Assembly: GCA_021498095.1 (NCBI GenBank)
Contig: JAIZWK010000001.1
Location: 1,080,001 to 1,112,000, forward strand
Direction of reading: 5' to 3'
Length of the DNA: 32,000 nt
Source of the DNA: Candidatus Harpocratesius repetitus
Lineage (GTDB): Archaea > Asgardarchaeota > Lokiarchaeia > Sigyniarchaeales > Promethearchaeaceae
Below, in pieces: positions 2,823-31,997 of the stretch. A model generated the notes under the pieces. That model was not told the origin of the DNA. It worked only from the letters and a program-made list of their open reading frames with translations, and ran no database searches. How positions within the stretch are numbered: the first letter of the stretch is position 1; every line of letters begins with the position of its first letter. The position numbers and the translations under genes are program-made.

Positions 2823-5219
2823 ATGGAAGAATTTAAGAATATCTGGCATGAATGGCAGGAACACTTCCAAATTTCATCTTCTCTATCTGAATATGAAGAT
2901 AGTGCGAATAATCGCTCCTTTAGATTTTTCTTAATAATTATTATACTATTAAAGGTAGAAATTATTTCATATAAAAATAAGAAAATCTTGTCGAATGCTG
3001 CTTATTTACTTCACACTTTTCAAGAACTTTTAAAACAATTGGGTGGAGATCCATCAGATTTTCGTGATCTACTTTATCCTCTTATAACAAGTAAAAAAAA
3101 AGTGGATAATCTTGAGAACTCTGAAAAATTTGAAAAATCTGAAAAATCTGAAAAATCGGAAAAATTTGATGAATTGCATATTTTTTATCAAAAACTCCAA
3201 CAACAGGTAAAAAAAAATAGTCTACACGCGCTTTTTTCATACTATTATCAATGTTTTTTGGAAGATCGCCATAATCAAGGTAATTTCTTTACTCCTTCTT
3301 GGCTGGTTAATTTTCATTTAAAACAACTTGTCAATATTATTAGTCAACATTATGGAAAATCGACTCAAACCTTGAAAATAGCCGATATTTCATGTGGGAC
3401 GGGTATTTTTTTACTCGAATCTTGTTCTTATTTTTCTTCTCATGAAATTTACGGCTTTGATCTCGATCCACTTGCTGTCGAACTTTGCCGCTTAAATTTA
3501 CTATTAAAGCAAAAATCTTTTCTTATTCAAGATTGCTCGAAATTGGGACAAGAACCTCAGATATCTTCCAAATCTAATCGTTCTTCGAATTTTCGATCTT
3601 GGAAAATATCATGTCAAGACTCAATTAAGCATCCGATCATTCCCAAAAAATTTCATCTTTTAATTGGAAATCCTCCTTGGGGTATTTCATTAGAACCTTA
3701 CAAGCATTTGTTCTCTCTTCATTTTCCATTTCTCCTTAGGAATTCTAAAAAATCTTCTAAAAATATAACTTATTCTAAATTTTCGAATAATCGACATAAA
3801 ATCTCTTCCTATTTTATTCGAGAGCAGGTGGATAGTGCAGCTTTATTTTTATGTCGAAATTTACAGTTGTTAATTAAAGATGGGATTTGTTCACTTATTT
3901 TACCTAGTAATCTTCTGTTAAATCCGAGTTATGAAGCTTTTCGCGCCAATATTCTCAGTCATTATTCATTACTGCAGATTTGTTATTTGGGTGAAAATAT
4001 CTTTCCAGAAGTCACTCTTCCTTCGATGATCCTTACGATTCAAAACAGAAAAGTGTCATCTAATCATATGATTGAAATTATTCAAATTGAAGCACCTAAC
4101 TTTTCTTCGCCCAATTTGGATGAATTACAACCTAAAATTCTGCAAAAATATCTAATATCACAATATTCATTTCAAAATAATCCTTTTTCAAACTTTACCA
4201 TCTTTCTTCATTCTCAAAATTATGAAATTATTAGAAAAATTCAACAAAATAGTATTTATCGTGTTGGTGATTTTCTGAAAAATAGCAGAGGTGTCGAATT
4301 GGGTAAAAAAGGAAAAATTTGTCAATGCCCTCACTGTTCTAAATGGAATCCACTTCCTTTATTTTTAAAACGCGCTAAAAATGGTCAACAAACTGCTAGA
4401 TGTAACAATTGCGGCAAATATTACAGAAAAGATCAAATAAGAAAACATAAACAAATAATTTTTCAAATAGATACTAAAAATTCAGACAAATTCCTTACTG
4501 ATTCCAAGCATCCGGTTCGACCCTTATTGGTTGGAGAATCAATTGGAAAATTTTTTCTGCAATTAAATCATAAAATTATATTAGGATACCCCGGTATAAA
4601 ATATAAATCTACTGAAATTTACAAACCACCTAAAATTCTCTTGCGTAAAACTGGTCGTGGAATTATTGGGGCAATTGACTATAAATCTCGTTATACATTG
4701 CAGGTTGTATACCAATTTATACAGAAATCTAATCTTTTTAATAAAAAGAAATCAATCTATTCTAATCAATTAGTCAATAATCAATCTATATCTCATAATC
4801 TTTCAATTCTTTCTGAATTTTCAGATAAGAAACCATTATCTACAAGAAAATCTAACTTTCCACCATTTACCTTAGAATTTCTATTCGCAATTATTACTTC
4901 TAAGATGATGGAATTTTATTATTTTAATGTATTTGCAAATCCAAAGAAAAAAGCATTTCCTCATTTACTGCAAGCAAATATCCTTGCATTACCTATCCCT
5001 TTCATTGATTTAAATGATCCTAAATCTAAATTCACCCAGTTATATCACCAAATTGTTTCATCTGTTCGCCAACTTAATTTTAAATGGATAAATCAAATAA
5101 ACTTAAATGTTAAAGAATCCTCTCAAAAAGATCTTATCGATTCAATAAATGATGCAGTGATGAAGATTTATGGTCTGAATTCGCATGATCAAGAAATAAT
5201 TCGTTCATTTAAAATATAG
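2823..5219 (+). CDS. N6-adenine DNA methyltransferase (Eco57I/TaqI-like MTase plus target-recognition domain)
   Basis: GNFFTP, motif I DISCGTGIF, YGFDLD, motif IV variant GNPPWG, and TaqI-C-like PKILLRKTG. The ORF track starts at TTG 2811; the first ATG is 2823. Confidence 0.85.
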   Translation: MEEFKNIWHEWQEHFQISSSLSEYEDSANNRSFRFFLIIIILLKVEIISYKNKKILSNAAYLLHTFQELLKQLGGDPSDFRDLLYPLITSKKKVDNLENSEKFEKSEKSEKSEKFDELHIFYQKLQQQVKKNSLHALFSYYYQCFLEDRHNQGNFFTPSWLVNFHLKQLVNIISQHYGKSTQTLKIADISCGTGIFLLESCSYFSSHEIYGFDLDPLAVELCRLNLLLKQKSFLIQDCSKLGQEPQISSKSNRSSNFRSWKISCQDSIKHPIIPKKFHLLIGNPPWGISLEPYKHLFSLHFPFLLRNSKKSSKNITYSKFSNNRHKISSYFIREQVDSAALFLCRNLQLLIKDGICSLILPSNLLLNPSYEAFRANILSHYSLLQICYLGENIFPEVTLPSMILTIQNRKVSSNHMIEIIQIEAPNFSSPNLDELQPKILQKYLISQYSFQNNPFSNFTIFLHSQNYEIIRKIQQNSIYRVGDFLKNSRGVELGKKGKICQCPHCSKWNPLPLFLKRAKNGQQTARCNNCGKYYRKDQIRKHKQIIFQIDTKNSDKFLTDSKHPVRPLLVGESIGKFFLQLNHKIILGYPGIKYKSTEIYKPPKILLRKTGRGIIGAIDYKSRYTLQVVYQFIQKSNLFNKKKSIYSNQLVNNQSISHNLSILSEFSDKKPLSTRKSNFPPFTLEFLFAIITSKMMEFYYFNVFANPKKKAFPHLLQANILALPIPFIDLNDPKSKFTQLYHQIVSSVRQLNFKWINQINLNVKESSQKDLIDSINDAVMKIYGLNSHDQEIIRSFKI
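3120..3169 (+). repeat. In-frame 9-bp tandem repeat (TCTGAAAAA-like, about 5.5 copies) encoding SEKFEKSEKSEKSEKF
   Basis: Read directly: tctgaaaaa tttgaaaaa tctgaaaaa tctgaaaaa tcggaaaaa tttga. Confidence 0.85.
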
Positions 5220-16741: not shown

Positions 16742-16863
16742 AAATGCATTTGGTTTTTAAATTATTGGCCAAGTTATATACCGAAAATATGTTCATATTA
16801 CATACGATTATATGATTATTGTTATTTTTATGCTTTATATTAGATTTGAGGACTAGACATCCA

Positions 16864-19341
16864 ATGATTGGTGAAAATTCCGGTTCGTTAACAGAAGTTC
16901 ATATTTTAGAACAGTTTGAATTAAGAAAGGAGATTGTTGGGTTTGAATTTACTAAGAAACGATTTACGGAATTCTTTCACGAAAACTTAAAAATTGTAAA
17001 AGCAGAATTACTTGCATTTTTTAGTCAAAATCCTGCAATCTTTTCCAGAAATAGTGAATTAAAGGAATTTTTAATTCGTGAAACGGATCTTTCTCCAGAT
17101 CATGAAGAATTTTTGGTTCAAGCCGTTGAAATTGGTGCTTTTTTCATTTTAAGTAAGCTTTTTACATATGAACTAATTCGGCAACAGGTAAGATCTTCCT
17201 ATTCAATTATTCTTCCTCCTGTTTATTCGAACAAAAATTCTGAGCGCTTTCAGAACCAAATCATACAAAACTATCGAAAGATTATGGATCTTTTTGAATT
17301 TGCTCCAATTTTCGCAATTAATCCTTTCATCAATTCATTTGATTTTTCTCCTTCTTTAATTTGTACATTAAAGGATTTCATTCATAAATTGCAGATGATG
17401 AATCTTCACCAGCTTAGCTTGGATTCATTCGGCTCGCTATTTCAAGATTTAATTCCCGCTATGGATCGAAAATTGCTTGGTCAAATTTATACACCCCCTG
17501 AAATCGCTGAATTTATGGCCAAATTAGCCATAAGAAATCCTGGAGATGTCATTTTAGATCCTGCTTGTGGATGCGGTAGTTTACTCTTACAGAGTTATCG
17601 TCGTTTATTTTCTTTACAACGAAAGGCAGATCCGAATTTATTGCATGAAAAAGTCCTTCATCAACTATGGGGAATTGAAATCAACGTGTTTCCCGCCTAT
17701 ATATCCATGCTTTCTTTGTCTTTTTTGAATTTAGCGACCATAACTGAATTTGTTGGAGTTTTATTAGAAGACTTTCTCCAATTGGGTCCATTGAATACTT
17801 ATATGGTTAAATCCAAGAATTTACAATCTGGAGACACCATTTCCCGTATTCTTCCTTCTTATTTTGATGTAATCATTGCAAATCCCCCATATATAAAACA
17901 GGAAAAAATACCCCGCAAAAAAATCATGATGAAGCAGTTACCTGAATTTGCAACCCAAAGAATTCAGCATAATGTAATAAAATCAAATCTTGATTCAAAA
18001 AAAAACGTAAAGAAACTTAAATTAGAGTTATCTGGAAAGACTGATTATTATGGCTTCTTTTTATGGTATAGTGCTTACTTTCTCAAAGAAGGAGGGCGTT
18101 TATGTTTCATCATTCCAAATAAATGGATGGATGTGAAATATGGAGAAAAAATTAAAGCCTTTCTTATGGAAAATTTTCAGATTCGGGCAATTATTAGCTT
18201 TGATCAAAATATTTTTAGATCCGCACAAGTTTCAACTGCAATTCTCGTTGCAGATAGATGTTCATCCCAAAAACAGCGCGAAGCAACTATTGTACAATTT
18301 ATTCGATTACAAAATAAAAATGCAATTCCATCTGTCTTGAAATTGGTTAACTCTACGAAAAATAATAAAGATTTCAATCAAATAAGGAGATTAACTCAAG
18401 AAAAATCAAATTCATATTTTTTTGATAATTCCATACAAGGAATTTCGAGAACTGCTGTTTTACAGAAATCGCTTCTACCAGTTGAAAAGTGGTCCATGAA
18501 ATATCTGTATCAAAGTCATTTTTCACAGATTCTCTCGAATCGAAAATTAATCTCCTTAGATAACCGTATTTTTTGCAGAGTTGTGGGTGGAATCAAAACA
18601 GGTGCGAATGATTTTTTCTTCCCATCCAAAGATATCTTGAACCACTTTAGAATTCCTTCTGAATTTTTGAAACCTGGAATTCGTTCTGGTCGCAATTTGC
18701 CTTCAACTTTTCTTATTCAAGAATCTATTAACCCATTTATTTCCATTCCTCCTGAAATCGAAGTTAATGATGAATCTAGGATTAGTGAATATATTCGATT
18801 TGGGCAAGATATTTGTCATTATCCTGATCGTCCTTCACTTCATTGGAAACCTTGGTATTCTATACCAGAAACACAGCAAGATTCTCCTGATATTTTATTT
18901 CTTCGACATATTGATAAGAGTTTTCGGGCTTATTGGAATAAAATTGGCGCGATAGTAGCTGATGGAATACGAGGGATTCAAGTATTAGATGATGAATGGT
19001 TGCTCTTTCTTTTAGGTGTTTGTAATTCTACATTTTTTTATTGGCAAGCTCACATGTTAGGTCGTTGGGAAGGTCAAGGCGACTTGCAGTTATTAGTTTA
19101 TGAATTACGTCGATTTCTCGTTCCTAACATGGGAGAAATTACAATTGATCAGAAAAATCAAGTAATTCAAGCAATGAAAAATATTTTACAAAATTCTCCC
19201 CAGATTGATCAAGTAACTGAGCAGCAGCAAGAAATATTAGATCGTGCCGTATTAAATTGTTTGGATTTAGAAGCTGAATATTCTTTACTAATTAAAGAAA
19301 CACAAATGATGGAACAGAAAAGATTATCAAAAGGGCTTTAA
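16864..19341 (+). CDS. N6-adenine DNA methyltransferase (type IIG/Eco57I-like MTase plus TRD)
   Basis: LGQIYTP, motif I DPACGCGSL, motif IV ANPPYIKQE, GRLCFIIP and VVGGIKTGANDFF. The ORF track starts at 16819; the first ATG is 16864. Confidence 0.88.
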   Translation: MIGENSGSLTEVHILEQFELRKEIVGFEFTKKRFTEFFHENLKIVKAELLAFFSQNPAIFSRNSELKEFLIRETDLSPDHEEFLVQAVEIGAFFILSKLFTYELIRQQVRSSYSIILPPVYSNKNSERFQNQIIQNYRKIMDLFEFAPIFAINPFINSFDFSPSLICTLKDFIHKLQMMNLHQLSLDSFGSLFQDLIPAMDRKLLGQIYTPPEIAEFMAKLAIRNPGDVILDPACGCGSLLLQSYRRLFSLQRKADPNLLHEKVLHQLWGIEINVFPAYISMLSLSFLNLATITEFVGVLLEDFLQLGPLNTYMVKSKNLQSGDTISRILPSYFDVIIANPPYIKQEKIPRKKIMMKQLPEFATQRIQHNVIKSNLDSKKNVKKLKLELSGKTDYYGFFLWYSAYFLKEGGRLCFIIPNKWMDVKYGEKIKAFLMENFQIRAIISFDQNIFRSAQVSTAILVADRCSSQKQREATIVQFIRLQNKNAIPSVLKLVNSTKNNKDFNQIRRLTQEKSNSYFFDNSIQGISRTAVLQKSLLPVEKWSMKYLYQSHFSQILSNRKLISLDNRIFCRVVGGIKTGANDFFFPSKDILNHFRIPSEFLKPGIRSGRNLPSTFLIQESINPFISIPPEIEVNDESRISEYIRFGQDICHYPDRPSLHWKPWYSIPETQQDSPDILFLRHIDKSFRAYWNKIGAIVADGIRGIQVLDDEWLLFLLGVCNSTFFYWQAHMLGRWEGQGDLQLLVYELRRFLVPNMGEITIDQKNQVIQAMKNILQNSPQIDQVTEQQQEILDRAVLNCLDLEAEYSLLIKETQMMEQKRLSKGL

Positions 19342-19404
19342 ATTCTCTTCATTATTAATATATTATTCAAAAAGTATATCTATAGAAGGAATGCATTAAA
19401 AAAC

Positions 19405-20319
19405 ATGGAACTTACAGAATTTGTTGATGATAATAAAGAAAAGAGAACTCAAAATTCTGTACTTATTGAAAAGAGAATTAAGAATAGAAAATTCAAAAAA
19501 ATTGTTGGTAATCCTCATCCCTTCCTTAAATGGGCTGGAGGGAAAAGGCAATTAATAGAACAATATGATGAATACCTTCCTAATGATATTGAAGAATATA
19601 TTGAACCATTTGTTGGTGGAGGTGCAATGTTTTTCTATTTGCTTCCAGATTTCGCTATACTAATTGATAATAACCCTGTTTTAATAAATACCTACAATGT
19701 CATCAAGAATAATGTGAATGAACTACTAAAACTATTAGAAAAGCATGAAAATAACTCTGAATATTATTATAATATAAGAAGCTTAGACAGACATCCTGAT
19801 TTTGATAAATTATCAGATATAGAAAAAGCATCCAGGACAATTTATTTAAATCGTTGTTGTTATAATGGATTATATCGAGTCAATAAAAAAGGGCAATTTA
19901 ATGTACCATTTGGGCGATATAAAAATCCCATTTTTTGTGATAAGGAAAATTTACTCGCTGTTCACCAATCTCTGCAAAATGTCGAATTAATTTGTGATTC
20001 TTTTGAAAAGGTAACAGAATTTGCTACAGAAAATTCTTTTATTTATATGGATCCTCCATATGTTCCAATTTCTGATACTGCAAGTTTTACTAGTTATACT
20101 AAAGAAGATTTTGGAAAGGAACAGCAAATTAAATTGAAAAAAGTATTTGAAACTTTGGATAAAAAAGGGAGCAAGGTAATGCTAAGTAATTCTTACTGTG
20201 AGTTCATTTTAGATTTATATGAAAAATATAAAATTAAAATTGTATATGCAACCAGAGCAATAAACAGTAATGCTAGCAAACGTGGAAAAATAAAAGAGAT
20301 ATTGATTTTAAATTACTAA
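19405..20319 (+). CDS. dam: Dam-family (D12 class) DNA adenine methyltransferase
   Basis: PFLKWAGGKRQLI, EPFVGGGAMFF, YNGLYRVNKKGQFNVPFG, DPPY, MLSNS and EILILNY. Confidence 0.92.
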   Translation: MELTEFVDDNKEKRTQNSVLIEKRIKNRKFKKIVGNPHPFLKWAGGKRQLIEQYDEYLPNDIEEYIEPFVGGGAMFFYLLPDFAILIDNNPVLINTYNVIKNNVNELLKLLEKHENNSEYYYNIRSLDRHPDFDKLSDIEKASRTIYLNRCCYNGLYRVNKKGQFNVPFGRYKNPIFCDKENLLAVHQSLQNVELICDSFEKVTEFATENSFIYMDPPYVPISDTASFTSYTKEDFGKEQQIKLKKVFETLDKKGSKVMLSNSYCEFILDLYEKYKIKIVYATRAINSNASKRGKIKEILILNY

Positions 20320-21703: not shown

Positions 21704-21747
21704 TTTAACAAAATATGGAAAATTAAAAAATAAATCAGGTGAGCAAC

Positions 21748-22101
21748 ATGACTGACAGTAATGAAAACACAAAAAATCAATCCGAAATTGCTTCAAAAGA
21801 TGAATTTCGACCTAAATACCGAATTACTCCAAAATACGGAGTTTATACAGAAGATGATAAAGTCATTCTCCAGATCGCAATTCCAGGGGTTAAAAAAGAG
21901 AATATTCATATGAAAGCTCTTAAAGATTACTTCACACTTCGTGCACAGCGTGATGAAAATACAGTGTACATGTTAGATTTAGACTTTGGGGTCAAAATTG
22001 AACCCGAAAAAACTTCCTCACGTTATGAAGAGGGATTACTTCGACTTGAATTCAAGAGATTCAATCCTTTGGAACATGCATACAATGTTCCAATTCAATA
22101 A
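21748..22101 (+). CDS. Small heat-shock protein (Hsp20/alpha-crystallin) paralog 1
   Basis: QIAIPGVKKENI and YEEGLLRL motifs. GGTGA SD at 21738-21742 favours ATG 21748 over GTG 21739. Confidence 0.85.
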   Translation: MTDSNENTKNQSEIASKDEFRPKYRITPKYGVYTEDDKVILQIAIPGVKKENIHMKALKDYFTLRAQRDENTVYMLDLDFGVKIEPEKTSSRYEEGLLRLEFKRFNPLEHAYNVPIQ

Positions 22102-22180
22102 TCTTTTTTCTTATCATGCACCCTTATAAATTCATAGAAATCTAAAATATAAAATACAAACAATCAACAGGTGAAGAAAA

Positions 22181-22540
22181 ATGGCATTAGTAGAAAATGA
22201 AAAAAGTCAAGCTATGCAAAAATCCGAAAATCAAGAAGAAAAAGATGAAATTTACTATCGTGTCTTCCCAGACATGAGACGTCGAATTAATTATGAAGAT
22301 AATACTATCTATATCGAAGTTTCGCTTCCTGGAGTTAAAAAGGAAGATATTACACTTAAAGCCTTACCTACTTGGTTCCACTTAGTAGGAAAGCGTGGTC
22401 ATATGGAATATTCCGCCAATCAATCATTTGGTGCAGAAATTGTACCTGAGAAGACTGAAGCAAAATATGACAATGGATTACTCCAAATAACAGCTCACAT
22501 CCGAGATCCAATGGATGATGCAAAAGAAATCGAGCTTTAA
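22181..22540 (+). CDS. Small heat-shock protein (Hsp20) paralog 2
   Basis: EVSLPGVKKEDI, AKYDNGLLQI, C-terminal EIEL, and an AGGTGA SD. Confidence 0.88.
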   Translation: MALVENEKSQAMQKSENQEEKDEIYYRVFPDMRRRINYEDNTIYIEVSLPGVKKEDITLKALPTWFHLVGKRGHMEYSANQSFGAEIVPEKTEAKYDNGLLQITAHIRDPMDDAKEIEL

Positions 22541-22638
22541 TTCTCTTTAATCTTTTTTTATCGAAAATTTTCAGTAAATTACACAACAAATGAAATAATA
22601 CAATAATATTGAAAAAATAATAAAAAAGGTGATAAAAA

Positions 22639-23004
22639 ATGTCAATGGTGGAAAAAAAGGAAGATATGGTGGAAAAAAAAGATGATATCAAAGAAAATGA
22701 AGAATCTAAAATCAAATATCGGATTAGACCAACTCGTTACATTAACTATGATTGTGTAGATAATTCTTGGGAGATGGAATTTCATTTACCTGGTGTAGCA
22801 AAAGAGAATGTCAAATTTAAAATCCTAAAAGATGCATATTCATTAGAAGCAACTCGTGATCAAGCCCTTTACCATACAAGTGAATATTTGCCATTTGAAA
22901 TTGATTTAGATAGTGTAAAAGCGGAGTATAATAACGGACTTTTATATGTTTCTGGAAAGATTAAGGACCCCATGGCAGATGCTGTCGAAATTAAGTTAGA
23001 TTAA
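22639..23004 (+). CDS. Small heat-shock protein (Hsp20) paralog 3
   Basis: EFHLPGVAKENV, AEYNNGLLYV, C-terminal EIKL, and an AGGTGA SD. Confidence 0.88.
   Translation: MSMVEKKEDMVEKKDDIKENEESKIKYRIRPTRYINYDCVDNSWEMEFHLPGVAKENVKFKILKDAYSLEATRDQALYHTSEYLPFEIDLDSVKAEYNNGLLYVSGKIKDPMADAVEIKLD
22645..22686 (+). repeat. 21-bp tandem duplication in the hsp20-3 N-terminus (MVEKKED MVEKKDD)
   Basis: atggtggaaaaaaaggaagat followed by atggtggaaaaaaaagatgat. Confidence 0.8.
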
Positions 23005-23201: not shown

Positions 23202-23230
23202 AATTCTAAAATTCTTTGGAGAATACATTT

Positions 23231-24289
23231 ATGCAAACACGCCCTAAAATTCTATTAATTGGAACGGGTGGAACCATCACTGCTCAAAAGATAGATGGTG
23301 CTTGGACTCCAGGAAAGTTTTCTGAAATTGATTTACTGCATTTTATTCCAGAGATTGAATCTTTGGCTCAGATTGATACTATAAATCTGTTTAACATAGA
23401 TTCTGTATGCATGCAGCCGAAATATTGGGTTACAATTGCCCAAACAATTCAAAATGAATATGATAATTACGATGGTTTTGTAATCAGCCATGGAACCGAC
23501 ACTTTGCATTACACTGCTTCAGCCCTTTCTTTTTTAATCCAGAATCTCACAAAACCCATCGTCCTAACAGGATCAATGGTTCCACCACACGTAATTGGAA
23601 CTGATGCCCGTCGAAACTTAACTGATGCGGTAAGGGTGGCTGCAGAAACGAATATTCATGAAGTAGTAATTGTTTTCAATCGAAAAATCCTAAGGGGAAA
23701 TCGTACAAAAAAATTCAGAGAGGTTGAATTCGATGCATACCAATCTATCGGATTGCAGCCTATTGGAATAATTGAACAAGATATTCGTTATACAGGAGTT
23801 TCTTATTTTAATCGATCATTATCTGATCGCCCTCATTTCTTTGATAAAATGGAATTAGAAGTCTGTATTCAAAAGATTACACCAGGTTATAATCCAGAAA
23901 TTATTGCAAAACTTCGAGAAATTGGTTACAAAGGTATTGTGACAGAAGGATTCGGTGCAGGTAATATTCCTATCTATGAAAATTCGCTAATTGAAGAAAT
24001 TGAAGCCGCTACAGATGCAAAAATTCCTGTAATAGTTTGCTCACAATGTGCTATCGGATTCTCATGGATGGATTTATATGAATCTGGAAAAATGGCGTTG
24101 AATGCTGGAGCAATTCCTGGATATGATATGATTTCTGAGACAGCAATGGTTAAACTGATGTGGATTTTGGGAAATTTTCCCAATTTCTCGATGCAGGAAA
24201 TTCGCGCCAAGATTTTAGAGGATGTTGCAGGAGAAATATCTAACATTAAATCTCCAAAAGAGAAACGGGCTTGGGAATATGCTTTTTAA
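23231..24289 (+). CDS. ansA: L-asparaginase, type I (cytoplasmic)
   Basis: GTGGTIT, HGTDT, PIVLTGS, NRTKK and EGFGAGN motifs; lacks the GatD N-terminal domain. The ORF track starts at TTG 23216; ATG 23231 follows a GGAG. Confidence 0.9.
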   Translation: MQTRPKILLIGTGGTITAQKIDGAWTPGKFSEIDLLHFIPEIESLAQIDTINLFNIDSVCMQPKYWVTIAQTIQNEYDNYDGFVISHGTDTLHYTASALSFLIQNLTKPIVLTGSMVPPHVIGTDARRNLTDAVRVAAETNIHEVVIVFNRKILRGNRTKKFREVEFDAYQSIGLQPIGIIEQDIRYTGVSYFNRSLSDRPHFFDKMELEVCIQKITPGYNPEIIAKLREIGYKGIVTEGFGAGNIPIYENSLIEEIEAATDAKIPVIVCSQCAIGFSWMDLYESGKMALNAGAIPGYDMISETAMVKLMWILGNFPNFSMQEIRAKILEDVAGEISNIKSPKEKRAWEYAF

Positions 24290-24413: not shown

Positions 24414-25868
24414 TTATCGATATGCATCAAAACGAGGATTAGGATCGAGTTTTTTCATCATTTCTTGCAATCCTGGTTCAACCCCCTGCATGAACATATA
24501 TCCCTTATTTGGCTCTCTTTTTGTAATTTCTCCACGAAGATTGGTTGTCATAATTTTTCGAACTTCTTCATAATTACGAGTCTGACCTAAAGTCCAAATC
24601 ATTTTTGAGTAAGCTGCAGAAGGTAACATATTTGCACCTTCAATCACACCTCGTGCCAGCATATCTCTACCAGTTTCATATACACGTAGATTGGTAAAAC
24701 CAAATAAAGGTTCAACAACAATCACAACTGGAATTTCTTCTTCTTGGGCTCGTTCCAAAGCATTAAACAAATAAGAACTAACATGACCCAAGCCTGTACC
24801 AATAATAACCATGCCGTGATATTTTTTGTCGATAACAGAATGTATCAAATCTTCATCCATGCCCGGGTAGAAATAGAGCATGGCAACACGTTCATCGATT
24901 TTGTCATTTAACCAAGTATCTTCAATATTCCCTCTTCGCTTAACATCTTGCTTAAGCCAAGTAATATTTTGATTAGCATCGATATAGCCTAAGGGAACGT
25001 CACTCAAAGTGCGAAAGGCATCTCGTCTGCTGGAATGCATCTTCCGGACTCGTGTTCCTCGGTGAATAAGGTTATAGGAGTCACTAGTGTTTCCGTGCAT
25101 AGAAACTACTACTTCGGCTAGATCAGCATGACCCGCAATAGTACTTGCATCAATAATATTCAACGGGCCGTCACTGGAAGGTCTGTCGCTGCTTCGTTGA
25201 GATCCAACACATACAATTGGGCGGGCTAAATCTTGAAACATAAAAGATAGTGCTGAAGCTGTAAAAGCCATTGTATCTGTTCCATGCCCGATAATGACTC
25301 CATCAGCGCCACTCTCAAATTCTTTCATAATTTCACGAGCAGTTTTAACCCAATATTCTGGTTTGAAATTTTCACTTAAGATTCCATAAATTTTTCGAGG
25401 TGTAAGATTACAAATATCCATTAATTCTGGAACGGCTGAAAATAACTCTTCTGGAGTGAATGCGGGCAGAACTGCACCAGTACGATAATCCAACCGACTT
25501 GCAACTGTCCCTCCTGTGCCAAGAAGCGTTACATTGGGTAAATCTGGTTTATATTTTACTTTTACTTCGGGTAACTTGTATTCTCCTTTACGAAAGCCTA
25601 ATTCTTCAATAGTACAATCATCAGTAATTTTTACTCCCACATTATAGCCTGTATCGACTTTGATTACCAAGTAATCTTCTGACGTGTGTTCACTTCGTGG
25701 TAGGATTACTCCTTCATACACTGCATTACCACGAGAAACCTTAACAACACTCCATACACCAACTCCTTCTCGAAGTAATCTTTCTCGGAGTTTGCCACGA
25801 TAACCGGTGGGTTCTTTTTCTATAGAAATATCTTTATTTTTTTGAATTGGTTCTGTCATTTGATTCAC
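24414..25868 (-). CDS. gatD: Glu-tRNA(Gln) amidotransferase subunit D, copy 1
   Basis: N-terminal YEGVILPR...GYNVGV domain, GTGGTVASRLDYRTGAV, HGTDT, GSQRSSDRPSSD and RVRKMHSSRRDAF. The start may be ATG 25859 (GGAGG upstream); the GTG at 25868 overlaps the gatE stop. Confidence 0.95.
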   Translation of the reverse strand: MNQMTEPIQKNKDISIEKEPTGYRGKLRERLLREGVGVWSVVKVSRGNAVYEGVILPRSEHTSEDYLVIKVDTGYNVGVKITDDCTIEELGFRKGEYKLPEVKVKYKPDLPNVTLLGTGGTVASRLDYRTGAVLPAFTPEELFSAVPELMDICNLTPRKIYGILSENFKPEYWVKTAREIMKEFESGADGVIIGHGTDTMAFTASALSFMFQDLARPIVCVGSQRSSDRPSSDGPLNIIDASTIAGHADLAEVVVSMHGNTSDSYNLIHRGTRVRKMHSSRRDAFRTLSDVPLGYIDANQNITWLKQDVKRRGNIEDTWLNDKIDERVAMLYFYPGMDEDLIHSVIDKKYHGMVIIGTGLGHVSSYLFNALERAQEEEIPVVIVVEPLFGFTNLRVYETGRDMLARGVIEGANMLPSAAYSKMIWTLGQTRNYEEVRKIMTTNLRGEITKREPNKGYMFMQGVEPGLQEMMKKLDPNPRFDAYR

Positions 25869-27886
25869 ATTCCTCCTGTAATTTTTTGATAAACAAAATC
25901 TGCTACCCGTTTCCCTGATATTGCATGATTAATTTTCCTCATAATCAAACCGGTTATTTGATTACATTGATATTGTAAATCATCAACACTTATCTTTACA
26001 GATTCTCCTTTTTTTGTATCTGAGTTGGTATTTTGGATTTGATATTTTCTTGATTTTCGCTGAAATGCATTAAAGGCCTCAAGTGCGTAAGCATATTCCT
26101 GTTCTAATTGGTTTTTTAATTGATTTTCATCGATTTTCTTTGCTCCAAAGCTGTCTAAAATTTGATTGAGCGAGAAAGTGGGGTGCTTGAGGGTAGAAAT
26201 AACTAAATCTTGTAAAAGTGCCCAATCATAGCGCTGATTTTGGGCCATTAACAATAATTCTGTTATTTTTTCATTCGAAAGCTTAAGTACATCAATTCCA
26301 TCCCGTTTTAATCCTAAAAGCGTCTCTTCTAAGAAGTGATAGACTCGTTTAGGTGGGATATGATGAAGATTCACCAAACGTTCAAATAATTCTATTCGTT
26401 CATGGCGGATTAATTCTGTCAACTGGTTAAATGTAATTCCATCTTTTCCACAATATTCTTTTTCATATTCCCAAGGGCGTTTTCTGACTTTGGAAGCCAA
26501 TTTTTCAATTGCATCCATGTCCATATCAAGGACTGGAGTATCTGTATCAGGATATAATCTTTCTTTTCCATGGATTACACGTAGAAATTCAGAATTTCCG
26601 TTGGGAAGTGCTTTTCGGGTCTCTTGGGGAACTCCATCAAATGCCATTTTAATACGTTCAATTACTTTTTTCATTGCATGAATTGTCCATTTTTGAGATC
26701 CTAAAGCGATCACATATGCATCATTTCCGCCGCATCCAAGAGTTTGAGTAATTTCATTATGTAATGAATCCGTGATACGTTGTTTAAAGTAATTATCTTC
26801 TGAAATGAAATTTGATTCAATCGCATCGGAGTGAAAGAGGTGTTTGATAGGGACTCCACTAATTAGCGATGCCTTTTCTAATATATCTTGGCCAAAATCT
26901 TTTCCTGGTTGTTCTTCTCTTCCCAAAATACCTTGAAGTTTGGGTAATCTAATTCCCATTATGATTGCCTTCTCTGGTATATCTGAAAAAAGATGGCTTA
27001 TATCTAAATATGTATGTTCAAAATCTTCTTTATGAAGTCCCCTTTGCTTTAATTCTTGAGCAATTTGTATAAGTGTATCTTGCCTGCAAATTTCATGACG
27101 GCATAATCTATCAAAATTTTCTAAATCTTGCACACCTTTCAATTCTACTCGGTCTCCCCCTTTAATACTGATATTTACATCTTGTCGGGCAGAACCAATT
27201 CCACGTCGTCCAATACCACTCAATCGCAAGATTAAACCTATAGTTTTAGCAGTTTTAATTAATTCTTCAGGGGTCGAAACATCCAAATAATCAGTAATTA
27301 CTTCTACTAATGGGATTCCTAATCGATCAAGGTTATAATAAACTGTTCGACCATTATTTTCAGTGCGAATTTTTCGAGCACTGTCTTCTTCAACTGTTAA
27401 ATTTGTGATTTTAATCTTTTTTCCATCAACCATTACCCATCCATCTCGGGCTACAATGGTTGTTCGTTGAAATCCAGTGGTAATACTTCCATCTAGATAC
27501 TGCTTCCGTGCAAAAATTATTTCATCTACCAATGCTTGACAATTTAACCAATGGGCTAATTCATAGCCACTCATTAAGGCTTCTTCATCGGGGTGCATAG
27601 GTGGTTGCTCATCTTGTTCATAGATGCAATCGCATTTTTCAAAAGCATGATATATAACCCGATAACCTTTTTCATATTCAATCAGCATTCCGGGGTCAAA
27701 ATCGCCCATTTCACCCAATACTGGTCTGAAATAGCGTTCAAATCGGTAATCTGGTGGAGTGGCGTTGGAAACCATGATTGGGGGGCAATGGCAAAAGAGT
27801 TTTCGTCGGGCATTGATTTGGTGATGAATTTCGAGTCCGGCATGAAAACCAATTTTAGTAAAATCAATTTTAGTTGGATCAAGCAT
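25865..27886 (-). CDS. gatE: Glu-tRNA(Gln) amidotransferase subunit E, copy 1 (divergent)
   Basis: GLEIH, KLFCHCP, DGSITTGFQRT, EEDSAR, DRLGIPLVE, RQDVNISIKGGDRVELKGVQ, insertion (GAD) domain, and RLYPDTD. Confidence 0.92.
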   Translation of the reverse strand: MLDPTKIDFTKIGFHAGLEIHHQINARRKLFCHCPPIMVSNATPPDYRFERYFRPVLGEMGDFDPGMLIEYEKGYRVIYHAFEKCDCIYEQDEQPPMHPDEEALMSGYELAHWLNCQALVDEIIFARKQYLDGSITTGFQRTTIVARDGWVMVDGKKIKITNLTVEEDSARKIRTENNGRTVYYNLDRLGIPLVEVITDYLDVSTPEELIKTAKTIGLILRLSGIGRRGIGSARQDVNISIKGGDRVELKGVQDLENFDRLCRHEICRQDTLIQIAQELKQRGLHKEDFEHTYLDISHLFSDIPEKAIIMGIRLPKLQGILGREEQPGKDFGQDILEKASLISGVPIKHLFHSDAIESNFISEDNYFKQRITDSLHNEITQTLGCGGNDAYVIALGSQKWTIHAMKKVIERIKMAFDGVPQETRKALPNGNSEFLRVIHGKERLYPDTDTPVLDMDMDAIEKLASKVRKRPWEYEKEYCGKDGITFNQLTELIRHERIELFERLVNLHHIPPKRVYHFLEETLLGLKRDGIDVLKLSNEKITELLLMAQNQRYDWALLQDLVISTLKHPTFSLNQILDSFGAKKIDENQLKNQLEQEYAYALEAFNAFQRKSRKYQIQNTNSDTKKGESVKISVDDLQYQCNQITGLIMRKINHAISGKRVADFVYQKITGGM

Positions 27887-27891
27887 AACTG

Positions 27892-27974
27892 CTCACAATG
27901 AACCACGATAAGGTAATATTTGTGTTAAGATCGGAACCTTTTTGAAGTCGTGGTTTTCGAGGAATGGAGGTGAG
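27892..27974 (-). promoter_or_regulatory. Candidate structured 5' leader of gatE1 (nested stems with an anti-SD-like sequence)
   Basis: Inverted repeats: AACCACGA/TCGTGGTT (27901-27908 / 27948-27955), AAGGT/ACCTT (27910-27914 / 27936-27940) and CTCAC/GTGAG (27892-27896 / 27970-27974). Confidence 0.3.
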
Positions 27975-28032
27975 ATGAAAAGGTAAAGAATGGGAAAAGA
28001 AGGGGAAAAGAATTGGAAAATATGAAAATAGC

Positions 28033-28443
28033 TTAAAGTGCTTGGAAATTCTTGAATTTAATATCGATTAGTTGATTGACTTTTTCTTCAATTTTCTTAG
28101 TATCAAAATTTGAAATATTCAATTGGGCTTTATTTTCTATATAAAGAGTGGTTGCAATCTCTCGTATAGACTTAATTTTGAACTCTCCCTTTAGATAAAA
28201 TACAAAATAGATTGATTTTTCAGCAAAAAAAAGATCTTTCGCAATTACAACCATGTATGTCAAATTTTCTCCCGAACCGAAAGTAATTGTTGCAATATCT
28301 TGCTTGAAAAGCTTTCTTCCCAGACTTCCAACCGCTGATACCATTCCACTCAGAAGAACAGCGTTAATTTCAATAAAACCTGCAAATGAACGAGTATAAA
28401 AGGGAAATCCTTGTGAATCACAAATTTGTATGCACAAAATCAT
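28033..28443 (-). CDS. Longin/roadblock-like small domain protein (Asgard type)
   Basis: 136 aa: N-terminal beta-hairpin ILCIQICDSQGFPFYTRSF, then helix LLSGMVSAVGSLGRKLF, the pattern typical of Asgard longin-like domains. Pattern recognition only. Confidence 0.6.
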   Translation of the reverse strand: MILCIQICDSQGFPFYTRSFAGFIEINAVLLSGMVSAVGSLGRKLFKQDIATITFGSGENLTYMVVIAKDLFFAEKSIYFVFYLKGEFKIKSIREIATTLYIENKAQLNISNFDTKKIEEKVNQLIDIKFKNFQAL

Positions 28444-28554
28444 GATATTTCTATGGAATTAAAAGAATGGCAAATTCATTAATATTTCTGTGATTTGTAA
28501 TATTATTGATTGATGATATATTAACTATAAAAATTATCGAAACCTTATGGTAAT

Positions 28555-30606
28555 ATGGGAAAAAGCATTGATTATAACGCGGTTGGGTTAAAATGTGGTA
28601 TTGAAATCCACCAACAGCTCGATTCTGCTACAAAACTCTTCTGTGCTTGTCCAAATCAACTTCAAGGTACGCGCGAACCTGATTTTCGAATTTTACGAAA
28701 GCAACGACCTGTTTTAGGGGAAGAAGGAAAATTCGATGAAGGTATGTTATCTGAATTTCTTAAGGGCGGTTCTGTCATTTATGAAGGCTATTATGATTGT
28801 ACGTGTACCTATGAATTGGATGAGACACCTCCTTTTAAATGTGATGAAGAGTGTATTGATATTGCGCTTGAGATTTGCGCTTTATTTAAAATGAATATTG
28901 TGCGTGAAATGCATGTTTGTCGGAAAAATTATGTTGACGGAAGTGTTCCTGCTGGATTTCAGAGAACTATGGAAATAGGTTATGATGGTAATCTGGATCT
29001 AAAAAATGGAAAAAAAATTGGAATTGAAAACATTTTTTTGGAAGAAGATGCAGCAAGGCGAATAAAAACACAAGGAAAGACTTCTTATTTTCGCGTTGAT
29101 AGATTAGGTATTCCTTTAGTGGAAATTACTACTACTCCTGATATACATGATCCAGAAGAAGCGAAAGAAACAGCTTATCGAATTGGGTTATTGCTGAGAT
29201 CGACGAATAAGGTCAAACGAATTATTGGGTCAACACGCCAAGATATTAATGTTTCAATTGCAGGTGGAGAACGAATTGAGATTAAAGGAGTGCAAAAATT
29301 GGATTGGATCCCAGAACTGATTCACAATGAAGTAATTCGTCAGCAAAAATTAATCGACATTAAGAATATTCTCAATCAAAAATCAATTTCACCAGATGAT
29401 ATTAGACGAGATCCTGTTGATTTAACGAAAATCTTCCAAAAAACAGAATGTCGGTTTGTAAAAGCTGGTATTAAACGAAAAGAAAAGTTCGTTGGTATGA
29501 AAATACCCGGATTTCATGGTATTTTTGGAACAGAGGTGCTTCCTAATCGAAGATTTGGGACAGAAGTTGCAGATAAAGTCAAAGTAATTGCAGGCTTGAA
29601 AGGATTAATTCATTCTGATGAAAATTTACTGGAGAAATATAATTTTTCACCGGAAGAAATCGCTCAAACTCGTCAAAAATTGAATATTCAAAACGATGAT
29701 CTTTTTATTTTATTACTGGCTTCAGGACAGGCATTAGAAACTGCTTTAGATGTAATCGTCGAAAGGTGTAAACAGGCATTCATTGGTGTGCCTGAAGAAA
29801 CACGACAAGCTAAAGAAGATGGGACTCATGTATTTTTACGGGAGTTGGGTGGTGAAAAGCGATTATATCCAGATACCGACACACCTCCTATCCTACTTTC
29901 AGAAGATCGCATAAAAAATATTAAAGAAAACATAGGGCCATATCCATGGGATATTATTGATGAATATGCGAAAAAGTATAATTTAGATCCTTTTCTGGTT
30001 GAAGATCTGATTATGGATGGAAAAATGGCTCTATTTAATGAGCTTATCGCAAAATATCCTGAAAATCCTATGTTAGTCATTCGGACAATTACTGATATGC
30101 TTAAAGTACTGCATAGGGAAGAAAAAAATATAAATACGCTCAAACCTTCGCATTTTCATGAATTATTTGCTGGTCTAAAGCAAGGAATTATTGCTAAAGA
30201 GGCAATGTTAGGTGTTTTACGAATTTGGACCGATTTTCCAGAAATTTCTCTAAAACAAGCAAAGAAAAAAATGGGAATAAAAACTACGGATTTAACTAAG
30301 TTAGATGGTATTATTGATGAGCTAGTTCAAAAAAATATGGAACTCATTAAGACAAGAGGCCGAGGTGCAATTGGGCCCTTAATGGGAGATCTAATGAAGA
30401 TTGTTGGGAGAGGTGCTGTTGATGGTAAGGTTCTATCTTCTAAATTGGCTCAAGCTATTGGTAAATTGATTTCCCAAGGAAACTCTACATCAGCAAATGA
30501 GAAAACAAAAAAGAAACAAAAAACAAAAAAACCTACAAAAAAAATTTCTCAATCCCCAAAAAATAACCCAAAGAAAACCACAAAAACAATTAAAGGTGAA
30601 AAATAA
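28555..30606 (+). CDS. gatE: Glu-tRNA(Gln) amidotransferase subunit E, copy 2 (closer to canonical, Lys-rich tail)
   Basis: GLKCGIEIHQQL, KLFCACP, DGSVPAGFQRT, EEDAAR, DRLGIPLVEITT, RQDINVSIAGGERIEIKGVQ, RRFGTEVAD, RLYPDTD, and a Yqey-like GPLMGDLMK...VDGK. Confidence 0.95.
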   Translation: MGKSIDYNAVGLKCGIEIHQQLDSATKLFCACPNQLQGTREPDFRILRKQRPVLGEEGKFDEGMLSEFLKGGSVIYEGYYDCTCTYELDETPPFKCDEECIDIALEICALFKMNIVREMHVCRKNYVDGSVPAGFQRTMEIGYDGNLDLKNGKKIGIENIFLEEDAARRIKTQGKTSYFRVDRLGIPLVEITTTPDIHDPEEAKETAYRIGLLLRSTNKVKRIIGSTRQDINVSIAGGERIEIKGVQKLDWIPELIHNEVIRQQKLIDIKNILNQKSISPDDIRRDPVDLTKIFQKTECRFVKAGIKRKEKFVGMKIPGFHGIFGTEVLPNRRFGTEVADKVKVIAGLKGLIHSDENLLEKYNFSPEEIAQTRQKLNIQNDDLFILLLASGQALETALDVIVERCKQAFIGVPEETRQAKEDGTHVFLRELGGEKRLYPDTDTPPILLSEDRIKNIKENIGPYPWDIIDEYAKKYNLDPFLVEDLIMDGKMALFNELIAKYPENPMLVIRTITDMLKVLHREEKNINTLKPSHFHELFAGLKQGIIAKEAMLGVLRIWTDFPEISLKQAKKKMGIKTTDLTKLDGIIDELVQKNMELIKTRGRGAIGPLMGDLMKIVGRGAVDGKVLSSKLAQAIGKLISQGNSTSANEKTKKKQKTKKPTKKISQSPKNNPKKTTKTIKGEK

Positions 30607-31997
30607 TGGTAGAAGAACAAGATATGAAGGATTACAGTGGATATAAACCCAATTCTGTTGCAATTATGAAGAAATTTGGTGTGAAATTATGGTATAAAAT
30701 CGAAATATTGTCTTCTAAAGGAACTGTTCAAGGTGTTGTCCTCCCCCGTAATAAATTTGCACCAGATGGATTTGTGGAGATTAAGCTTAAAAATGGTTAT
30801 AATATTGGGGTTCCTCTGGATAAAAATACTAAAATTAAGGTTATTGGTGAAGTTCCTCCCATGAAAGTTTCATTTGATCAACATATTCAACCAAAAAACA
30901 AAAATCTTCCAACTGTGTGTCTTTTAGGTACAGGGGGAACAATTGCTTCTCGATTGGATTACACAACAGGAGCAGTTATTCCAGCCTTTGAACCTGGGGA
31001 ATTATTTACCGCTGTCCCAGAACTGGCAAAAATTAGCAATATTGAAACTGAAGTTGTTTATCAACTCCTTTCTGAAAATCTTACACCCCAGAACTGGCTC
31101 GAATTAGCGAAAAAAATAGTAGAATTAGCGAAAACTAATATTGATGGTATTGTTATTGCCCATGGAACAGATACACTAAGTTATGCTTCTGCCGCTCTTT
31201 CTTTTCTTTTGAAAAATGTCTCAATTCCAATAGTTTTGGTTGGTTCTCAACGATCAAGTGATCGACCATCTTCTGATGCAGCTTTAAATTTAATTCATGC
31301 AGTTACTATTGCCAGTAAAGCAAATATTGGAGAAGTTGTTGTCTGTATGATGGGTTCCTCAGCACACGATTATGGATTCATTCATCGAGGTACAAGAGTG
31401 AGAAAAATGCATTCTTCTGCAAGACACACCTTTAGATCTATTGGAATTACACCTTTAGGTATGATCCGAGACGATGAAATTAAATACTTTTCTACAGAAA
31501 TCAAGCCAAGAGATTCAAAAAATCGTAAAAAAATGGAATGTTGGTCATCAATTGAAGAAAAAGTGGCTCTTATTTATTCCTATCCTGGAATGAAGGGCGA
31601 TATTCTTGATTTTTACTTGAATTCAGGATATAAAGGCATAGTATTTGCTGGTTCAGGGCTTGGACATTTACCAAAGACAATGTATCCTGCTTTGAAACGA
31701 GCATATGATGCAAAGATTCCGATATTGATGACTGTTCAAACGCTTTGGGGGTATACTGGAATGGATGTCTATGAAAGTGGCCGAGAATTGCAAGATTTAG
31801 GTGTTATTCCTGGAAAGAATATGCTCCCTGAAGTAGCATTTACCAAAATGTGTTGGGCATTAGGTAATTTCAATGAATATGAGAAGATTAGAGAAGTATT
31901 AACAACCAATATTGCTGGTGAAATTACATCAGGAGAATCAATGAATGGTTTTCAAATTTTTCAAGGCGTAGAACACACAATTTCACCCAAAGAATAA
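30606..31997 (+). CDS. gatD: Glu-tRNA(Gln) amidotransferase subunit D, copy 2
   Basis: GYNIGV, GTGGTIASRLDYTTGAV, HGTDT, GSQRSSDRPSSD and RVRKMHSS. TAATG stop/start overlap with gatE2. Confidence 0.95.
   Translation: MVEEQDMKDYSGYKPNSVAIMKKFGVKLWYKIEILSSKGTVQGVVLPRNKFAPDGFVEIKLKNGYNIGVPLDKNTKIKVIGEVPPMKVSFDQHIQPKNKNLPTVCLLGTGGTIASRLDYTTGAVIPAFEPGELFTAVPELAKISNIETEVVYQLLSENLTPQNWLELAKKIVELAKTNIDGIVIAHGTDTLSYASAALSFLLKNVSIPIVLVGSQRSSDRPSSDAALNLIHAVTIASKANIGEVVVCMMGSSAHDYGFIHRGTRVRKMHSSARHTFRSIGITPLGMIRDDEIKYFSTEIKPRDSKNRKKMECWSSIEEKVALIYSYPGMKGDILDFYLNSGYKGIVFAGSGLGHLPKTMYPALKRAYDAKIPILMTVQTLWGYTGMDVYESGRELQDLGVIPGKNMLPEVAFTKMCWALGNFNEYEKIREVLTTNIAGEITSGESMNGFQIFQGVEHTISPKE

Follow-up and report, generated by a model that had tools for sequence, protein, structure and literature searches.

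A second, anciently separated GatDE family with rebuilt tRNA-contact parts in Asgard archaea, a candidate for the formation of Asn-tRNA(Asn)

The genome of Candidatus Harpocratesius repetitus, an Asgard archaeon of the Lokiarchaeia, holds two complete gene pairs for GatDE, the archaeal tRNA-dependent amidotransferase composed of the subunits GatD and GatE, and the second of these pairs is a member of a separate, old and widespread GatDE family, here named GatD2E2, and not a local duplicate of the first. In textbooks and reviews, GatDE is treated as an enzyme specific to archaea, encoded once per genome and devoted to Gln-tRNA(Gln) (PMC2811023, PMC9499178). Both pairs occur in the window analysed here, a stretch of 32,000 nt (contig positions 1,080,001-1,112,000) from a genome which consists of a single 4.36-Mb contig, and all coordinates below refer to positions in this window unless a contig is named. 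Four intact open reading frames (ORFs), organized as two back-to-back gatE-gatD operons, fill positions 24414-31997:

24414-25868, minus strand: gatD2, 484 aa, asparaginase-type glutaminase subunit of pair 2
25865-27886, minus strand: gatE2, 673 aa, GatE-type kinase/transamidase subunit of the divergent pair (pair 2)
28555-30606, plus strand: gatE1, 683 aa, canonical GatE (pair 1)
30606-31997, plus strand: gatD1, 463 aa, canonical GatD (pair 1)

The two intact, divergently transcribed operons with overlapping stop and start codons described in the initial annotation of this DNA are thus confirmed as ORFs. The gatE2/gatD2 overlap measures 4 nt, at a GTG start, with an ATG located 8 nt past the gatE2 stop, and the gatE1/gatD1 overlap measures 1 nt. 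According to whole-genome searches, these two are the only gatDE pairs of the genome, to which a type I asparaginase has to be added.

With respect to their family identity, all four proteins score above the NCBIfam equivalog cut-offs. GatE1 and GatE2 reach 656.6 and 484.7 bits with NF003107 (GatE, cut-off 456 bits), and 574.9 and 416.1 bits with TIGR00134 (cut-off 319.55), while GatD2 and GatD1 reach 520.1 and 490.6 bits with TIGR02153 (GatD, cut-off 324). The catalytic motifs reported earlier are present in both copies, namely ExH, EED, LVE and RQD in the GatE subunits and, as seen in the alignment, the asparaginase motifs TGGT, HGTDT and RKMH in the GatD subunits, which both consist of GatD_N and both asparaginase domains. 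The AlphaFold2 (AF2) model of GatE2 (predicted local distance difference test score, pLDDT, 89.6) displays a complete GatE fold, including the AspRS-like insertion domain and a helical tail, and its top Foldseek matches are 1ZQ1_C (E 2.5e-43) and 2D6F (E 2e-40). By sequence and fold, pair 2 is a GatDE, which departs from the family in a single defining feature examined, the conserved YqeY-type tail motif. Pfam recognizes GatB_N alone on GatE2, PF02637 (GatB_Yqey) being unmatched, and the match of GatE2 to NF003107 stops at profile position 579 out of 630; on GatE1, both GatB_N and GatB_Yqey are recognized, together with GAD at 22.1 bits, under its gathering cut-off of 23.4 bits. Since GatE1 and GatE2 share 37% identity and GatD1 and GatD2 43%, the two pairs do not represent an assembly duplicate, as had been surmised from their divergence.

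Phylogenetic trees were built by quick search and rooted on GatB for GatE and on asparaginase for GatD, and they carry a long-branch warning for the Hod subclade. In these separate trees, all the GatE2-type sequences (E2) form one clade and all the GatD2-type sequences (D2) form one clade, each with a support of 100 in the SH-like approximate likelihood-ratio test (SH-aLRT) and with stem lengths of 1.16 and 0.46, respectively. Both clades are nested among the Asgard GatDE, beside the canonical clades of the Lokiarchaeia order and of the Helarchaeota, and the E2 and D2 from Bathyarchaeia lie within a Heimdall/Thor subclade, a position which points to a putative transfer. GatE1 branches inside the GatE clade of the Lokiarchaeia order, and GatD1 groups with the GatD of sister families that have one copy only. 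In comparisons with the sister families of this order, in which GatDE is single-copy, identity amounts to ~52% for GatE1 and ~37% for GatE2, and to ~53% for GatD1 and ~49% for GatD2. Pair 1 is the ordinary Asgard GatDE orthologue, and it is to this pair that the housekeeping role, earlier assigned to one of the two, can be attributed.

In the family to which H. repetitus belongs, 8 of the 14 genomes, distributed in four genera and including P. syntrophicum MK-D1 and L. ossiferum B35, possess an adjacent gatE2-gatD2 pair near gatE1-gatD1. Outside this family, a pattern scan covering a single genome of each species detected E2 in many Heimdall-labelled metagenome-assembled genomes (MAGs), in two closed Heimdallarchaeum genomes, in Hod- and Thor-labelled MAGs, in many Bathyarchaeia and in Thermoplasmata, the E2-type gene being always followed by a D2-type gene with 58-77% identity to GatD2. 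Orthologous gatE2-gatD2 pairs occur in >60 genomes, in all cases in the order gatE2 then gatD2, and those from beyond the Lokiarchaeia are 45-77% identical to GatE2 and GatD2 taken together. Owing to these orthologues, the duplication within the lineage proposed in the initial annotation has to be abandoned, and its premise that archaeal GatDE is normally single-copy does not hold for many genomes of Asgard archaea and Bathyarchaeia. The signatures RPVLGEMG.FD, RLYPDTDTP and G[YF]xxxQG[VI]E, which had been regarded as unusual and peculiar to the two pairs, turn out to be general features of Asgard GatE and GatD, which fits an origin of GatD2E2 from Asgard GatDE.

Both pairs are maintained by selection. 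Compared with a congener, the nonsynonymous divergence (dN) is 0.057 for D2, 0.174 for E2, 0.169 for E1 and 0.166 for D1; because synonymous sites have reached saturation already among members of the genus, the analysis yields dN and an upper bound only. With dN low and the synonymous divergence (dS) saturated, all four genes are under purifying selection. In the family of H. repetitus, identities range over 76-92% for D2, 54-78% for D1 and 57-75% for E2, the D2 subunit being better conserved than D1. Compared with D2 orthologues from the various phyla, GatD2 shows 64-92% identity.

A few records from this survey deserve mention in their own right. One Bathyarchaeia MAG (ERP119294_co4_366; L088, L106) contains two different E2-D2 loci in addition to a canonical GatE, and has either three GatDE pairs or a mixed bin. 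A record titled Candidatus Deferrimicrobium sp. (L124), from a bacterial-labelled MAG, contains a GatE-GatD pair which groups with the Helarchaeota GatE. In records of Jordarchaeia/Freyarchaeota (L115-L120, ~2947-4938), GatE occurs as two ORFs of ~107 and ~530 aa, separated by ~75 nt, in several independent MAGs; the gene could be split, contain an intron or undergo recoding.

The differences between the two GatE types are concentrated in two regions of GatE2:

25868-26128, minus strand: rebuilt tail of GatE2, about residues 587-673
26687-27019, minus strand: remodelled AspRS-like insertion domain of GatE2, about residues 290-400

Fifty-one alignment columns which are constant across the E1-type GatE and the archaeal GatB were used as an invariant set and compared with the 40-member E2 clade. 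The E2 clade retains 42 of these 51 columns, and no column of the cradle or the catalytic site has changed its consensus residue; of the nine columns that are not retained, five lie in the tail, and include G611, M614, G620 and D623 of GatE1. The tail domain reads the D-loop of the tRNA (PMC2811023). Its canonical motif GxxAxGP-LMG...RGK.DGK, present in GatE1, is replaced by NQITG-I.MRKI...SGK in the Lokiarchaeia-type GatE2, and by still other residues in the E2 from Heimdall and Bathyarchaeia. A Lys-rich insert of 10-25 residues precedes the replaced motif in the Lokiarchaeia-type GatE2, but does not occur in the Heimdall and Bathyarchaeia E2. A Lys-rich tail motif KxGKxK characterizes the GatCAB-type Asp-tRNA(Asn) amidotransferase (PMC2811023), and the Lokiarchaeia-type GatE2 has its Lys-rich insert ahead of the last helices, but no conserved KxGKxK. 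In the AF2 model, the tail of GatE2 consists of a long helix (residues 587-619), a stretch of low confidence (620-633) and two helices (634-651 and 658-669). In one Lokiarchaeia genus the tail is wholly lost, GatE2 measuring 573-576 aa and its gene lying inside a 427-kb contig. In the insertion domain, a conserved Arg of the E1 type (R333 in GatE1) becomes Asp (D330) in 93% of the E2 clade, and the net charge of the motif shifts from +0.5 in the E1 type to -2.5 in E2. As judged from these sequences, GatE2 has an intact catalytic core and altered predicted readers of the tRNA body, i.e., the tail and the insertion domain, in agreement with the earlier view of pair 2 as a diverged paralogue which is under selection and changed in its tRNA-recognition modules.

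GatE1 has its own peculiarity at the C-terminus (30475-30606), where a Lys/Thr/Pro-rich low-complexity extension of ~45 residues follows the tail domain. A similar extension occurs in the GatE1 of L. ossiferum, and it might add some unspecific RNA binding.

The phyletic distribution of GatD2E2 is complementary to that of GatB. The contrasts reported here rest on related genomes and probably on few events, and are to be taken as suggestive and not as a statistical proof. In the sister families of the same order, 42 of the 47 genomes carry the GatB signature and none carries E2. In the family of H. repetitus, the eight E2 holders are all devoid of GatB, while 4/14 genomes have GatB and are devoid of E2. 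Another 26 E2 holders were likewise without GatB. A set of 51 genomes related to a Bathyarchaeia holder included 4 with E2, 9 with GatB and none with both, most of the set having neither, and GatB was not found in any of 51 relatives of Heimdallarchaeum.

The two systems are also both linked to asnS, the gene of AsnRS. The asnS-gatA-gatB operon of the sister family begins with asnS, and in the genus of H. repetitus asnS adjoins the gatDE cluster. Two sister-family records (L151:960-5358 and L150:1242-5615) show asnS, gatA and gatB in one co-oriented cluster, and AsnRS and an Asp-tRNA(Asn) amidotransferase are apparently co-transcribed in this family, in which many genomes hold both the AsnRS and the GatCAB routes. 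The four GatB holders from the family of H. repetitus (G003, G005, G006 and G008) give no match to the asnS model at E<=1e-60, not even to the archaeal-type AspRS, which scores about 250-280 bits on that model in all the other relatives; the AspRS of these four genomes may be of another kind. One of them, G006, has the same genus code as L. ossiferum (G010) and yet possesses GatB instead of E2 and AsnRS, which could correspond to a recent switch or to a binning problem.

Another pattern concerns GlnRS. To our knowledge, reviews describe archaea as devoid of this enzyme. In the Heimdall group (genomes G061-G172), however, a bona fide GlnRS is found, and it is found only in carriers of the E2-type GatDE. 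None of the 14 genomes with a canonical GatE only has GlnRS, whereas a bona fide GlnRS, scoring 630-720 bits, is present in most of the E2-only genomes, among them the closed genomes of Heimdallarchaeum PR6 and PM71, and most of the genomes with both GatE types have GlnRS too. E2 does not stand in for E1: in this group, a canonical GatE unaccompanied by E2 is confined to genomes without GlnRS, and E2 is retained whether or not GlnRS is there. A GlnRS from Hodarchaeales and Kariarchaeaceae has been mentioned in passing (10.1101/2024.07.04.601786).

Asparagine synthetases also differ in the Heimdall group. An AsnB or AsnA-type synthetase is present in 10/13 genomes with a canonical GatE only, and among the 18 E2-only genomes none has AsnA or AsnB over the cut-off, 3 having sub-threshold AsnA-like matches; neither AsnA nor AsnB was found in Heimdallarchaeum PR6 and PM71. 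A corresponding contrast sought in the Bathyarchaeia does not exist (2/6 holders vs 6/17 non-holders), nor was it seen in the Lokiarchaeia.

The inventory of the H. repetitus genome itself completes the picture. GlnRS was not found in the genome, the sole match being a GluRS at 193 bits, so that an amidotransferase for Glu-tRNA(Gln), i.e., pair 1, is required. GatB was not found either, the GatB model matching the two GatE genes only, and neither was GatA, whose best genomic match is an amidase at 210.9 bits (cut-off 481.1), 27-29% identical to the GatA of relatives. A joint absence of gatCAB and asnS had been named earlier as telling support for a second function; gatCAB is indeed absent, but asnS is present, starting 130 bp beyond the end of the window and convergent with gatD1, and its product scores 478.5 bits with the AsnRS model (cut-off 414). 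The genome also contains one archaeal-type AspRS; AsnB was not found in it. Two tRNA(Gln) genes are present, with the anticodons CUG and UUG, the latter with an intron in the D-loop; their acceptor stems are identical (A1-U72) and their D-arms near-identical. An isoacceptor-specific GatDE is not favoured, both tRNA(Gln) having these parts in common. The tRNA-Gln(UUG) gene, located outside the window (contig positions 3307938-3308027), is miscalled as tRNA-Ala by ARAGORN, its D-loop insertion measuring ~13 nt, and has an anticodon arm similar to the one in tRNA-Glu(UUC). A tRNA-Asp was not found by ARAGORN or by the Rfam scan, and was probably missed because of introns. In tRNA(Asn), the first base pair is G1-C72, and its use as a clue to the substrate was dropped, since archaeal GatCAB ignores this pair (PMC2811023).

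Taking these data together, we tentatively propose, with somewhat less than an even chance of being right, that GatD2E2 works as a tRNA-dependent amidotransferase whose target has become Asp-tRNA(Asn) and which stands in for GatCAB. The Asp-tRNA(Asn) substrate, one of those suggested in the initial annotation, is the leading hypothesis on purely comparative grounds. Pair 1 would act as the ordinary archaeal Glu-tRNA(Gln) amidotransferase, required in a cell without GlnRS. In pair 2, GatD2 would free ammonia from glutamine or asparagine, and GatE2, whose pocket for this chemistry is still complete, would phosphorylate, and then amidate, an acidic amino acid carried as an ester on the 3' end of a tRNA. 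Two modules of GatE2 which would hold the tRNA body, namely the YqeY-like tail and the AspRS-like insertion domain, appear to have been rebuilt, and with these modules rebuilt a different charged tRNA would be taken; we infer that the substrate is still an aminoacyl-tRNA, distinct from that of pair 1. The most likely one would be Asp-tRNA(Asn), whether by itself or together with Glu-tRNA(Gln). It is the simplest candidate because it represents the only other known substrate class, because GatD2E2 occurs only where GatCAB is missing, because GatD2E2 survives the arrival of GlnRS, and because it would provide the only visible route to Asn in Heimdallarchaeum-like genomes. GatD2E2 would do in its holders the job done by GatCAB in the sister lineages, i.e., a tRNA-dependent formation of Asn alongside AsnRS, as in Thermus and Deinococcus.

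Several observations weigh against this proposal. AsnRS exceeds the cut-off in 22/26 E2 holders, the remaining four being fragmentary, and with AsnRS in essentially every holder E2D2 is never the sole route to Asn-tRNA. Nor do all the holders need such a route to asparagine, since an AsnA-type synthetase occurs in MK-D1, L. ossiferum and 2/6 of the Bathyarchaeia holders, and also in H. repetitus, as an AsnRS paralogue (NF005054, 360.9 bits vs a cut-off of 309); on paper, H. repetitus can make both Asn and Asn-tRNA without any amidotransferase. Most Bathyarchaeia have neither GatB nor E2, and the anti-correlations rest on few independent events. In a Thor-labelled MAG and a Thermoplasmata MAG, both fragmentary, E2 is the only amidotransferase and GlnRS was not found, so that E2D2 must make Gln-tRNA there if these MAGs are complete. 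Moreover, the E2 loop located beside the first base pair remains GatE-like and basic (+3.2), vs -2.5 in archaeal GatB. The AspRS brings no help. Its sequences were aligned to the T. kodakarensis enzyme (1B8A), whose residues W26 and K85 we take, from work of the Söll laboratory, to be the discrimination positions. A Pro occupies the K85 position in H. repetitus, in 16/21 E2 holders and in 26/26 GatB holders, but also in 15/17 Bathyarchaeia controls which have neither GatB nor E2, and as a mark of non-discrimination it is uninformative.

Alternatively, GatD2E2 would be a second Glu-tRNA(Gln) amidotransferase, identical to pair 1 in its reaction and its tRNA and kept for another condition, expression level or partner, an explanation which we regard as rather doubtful; in a variant of it, a non-discriminating GluRS would produce Glu-tRNA(Gln) which the enzyme would clear, also in the presence of GlnRS. 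The descent of GatD2E2 from Asgard GatDE and the retention of a GatE-type basic loop by the first base pair are consistent with such a role, and redundancy does exist, canonical GatDE co-occurring with GlnRS in six genomes. The Thor and Thermoplasmata MAGs, together with ~1/4 of the E2-only Heimdall-group MAGs, are devoid of both GlnRS and canonical GatE, but these GlnRS-less MAGs are fragmentary. Against such a role stand the replacement of the tail motifs common to GatE and GatB and the Heimdall pattern (GlnRS in 0/14 genomes with a canonical GatE alone, E2 kept regardless). A specialization for one isoacceptor is unlikely, the two tRNA(Gln) being too alike. It is also conceivable, though unlikely, that the carboxylate amidated by GatD2E2 sits on an acceptor of another kind, e.g., another aminoacyl-tRNA, a tRNA-like RNA or a non-tRNA carrier, the conserved kinase/transamidase pocket being combined with a new docking surface. 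The retention of GatD2E2 where GlnRS and AsnRS both exist, the rebuilding of both tRNA-body modules with an inverted charge in the insertion domain, the disappearance of the tail in one genus (GatE2 of 573-576 aa) and the unusual conservation of D2 speak for it; every core invariant common with GatB is nevertheless retained, no conserved neighbour hints at another pathway, and there is no known precedent. In its stricter form, according to which GatD2E2 has left both classical substrates and amidates an acidic residue borne by some other RNA or carrier, this idea would explain why GatD2E2 is kept, and highly conserved, in spite of GlnRS and AsnRS, and is quite improbable. As for a decaying or silent duplicate, or an artefact of assembly or binning, its chance is practically negligible: pair 2 does have a lower HMM (hidden Markov model) score, and nothing else in its favour, as compared to intact frames in a single-contig genome, orthologous pairs in >60 genomes, a low dN with saturated dS, and a D2 more conserved than D1.

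The surroundings of the E2-D2 loci vary from one lineage to another. Among the loci examined, no conserved neighbour gene common to the phyla was found, and the neighbours are lineage-specific: the Heimdall loci have a Ras-like GTPase and a cytidylyltransferase, and those of another group an actin-family gene. Five Bathyarchaeia loci (L080, L082, L089, L097 and L106) have a gene for glutamine synthetase immediately upstream of gatE2, which might serve to supply the amide donor. In the window, two other ORFs are found next to the operons:

23216-24289, plus strand: type I L-asparaginase adjoining gatD2, 357 aa
28033-28443, minus strand: small ORF between the operons, 136 aa, without Pfam or NCBIfam match

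The asparaginase, which reaches 291.3 bits with TIGR00519 (cut-off 260.5) and scores under the GatD cut-off, adjoins gatD2 in this genus only. The small ORF has the same position in two other genomes of the genus (59-69% identity), was not found outside the genus and is probably not part of the GatDE system. Upstream of the asparaginase lie three tandem HSP20-family genes (119-121 aa; 21739-23004), the first of which scores 20.4 bits vs a cut-off of 20.8, and further upstream (16819-20319) an Eco57I/N6-type DNA methylase and a D12-class methylase.

The GatD2E2 family is apparently undescribed, a full-text literature search of incomplete coverage having yielded no second GatDE family. An anciently separated second family of GatDE would represent a new branch of the indirect aminoacylation machinery, with seemingly rebuilt tRNA readers, spread over the archaea closest to eukaryotes and retained even after the arrival of GlnRS. 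Should it make Asn-tRNA(Asn), it would be the first Asp-amidotransferase of the GatDE type, GatCAB would appear as replaceable by a GatDE derivative, and the rewiring of Asn and Gln decoding along the line leading to eukaryotes would be concerned. GatD2E2 is directly testable with the genes of cultured strains, i.e., P. syntrophicum MK-D1 and L. ossiferum.

Compared with known systems, GatD2E2 most closely resembles the archaeal GatDE, known from M. thermautotrophicus (2D6F) and P. abyssi (1ZQ1), with which it shares two subunits encoded by adjacent genes, the asparaginase motifs of GatD, and, in GatE2, the cradle, the AspRS-like insertion, the layout of helical part and tail, and all the core invariants. 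It differs in forming a separate clade on a long stem, in the replacement of the tail signature with its GxxAxG, in the Lys-rich insert and the inverted charge of the insertion domain, and in being kept by genomes with GlnRS which have lost the canonical GatDE. With archaeal GatCAB, it has in common the catalytic cradle of GatB, a complementary distribution, GatD2E2 occurring only where GatB is missing, and, in this order, a genomic linkage to asnS; unlike GatCAB, it would obtain its ammonia from the asparaginase fold of GatD instead of the amidase GatA, has no GatC, and contains in GatE2 an insertion domain which is absent from GatB, along with a basic instead of an acidic loop at the first base pair. 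Thermus thermophilus and Deinococcus radiodurans combine AsnRS, a non-discriminating AspRS and an amidotransferase, and have no asparagine synthetase. The GatD2E2 holders resemble them in associating AsnRS with an amidotransferase and, in the Heimdallarchaeum-like genomes, in that AsnA and AsnB were not found, whereas H. repetitus departs from them by its AsnA-type synthetase.

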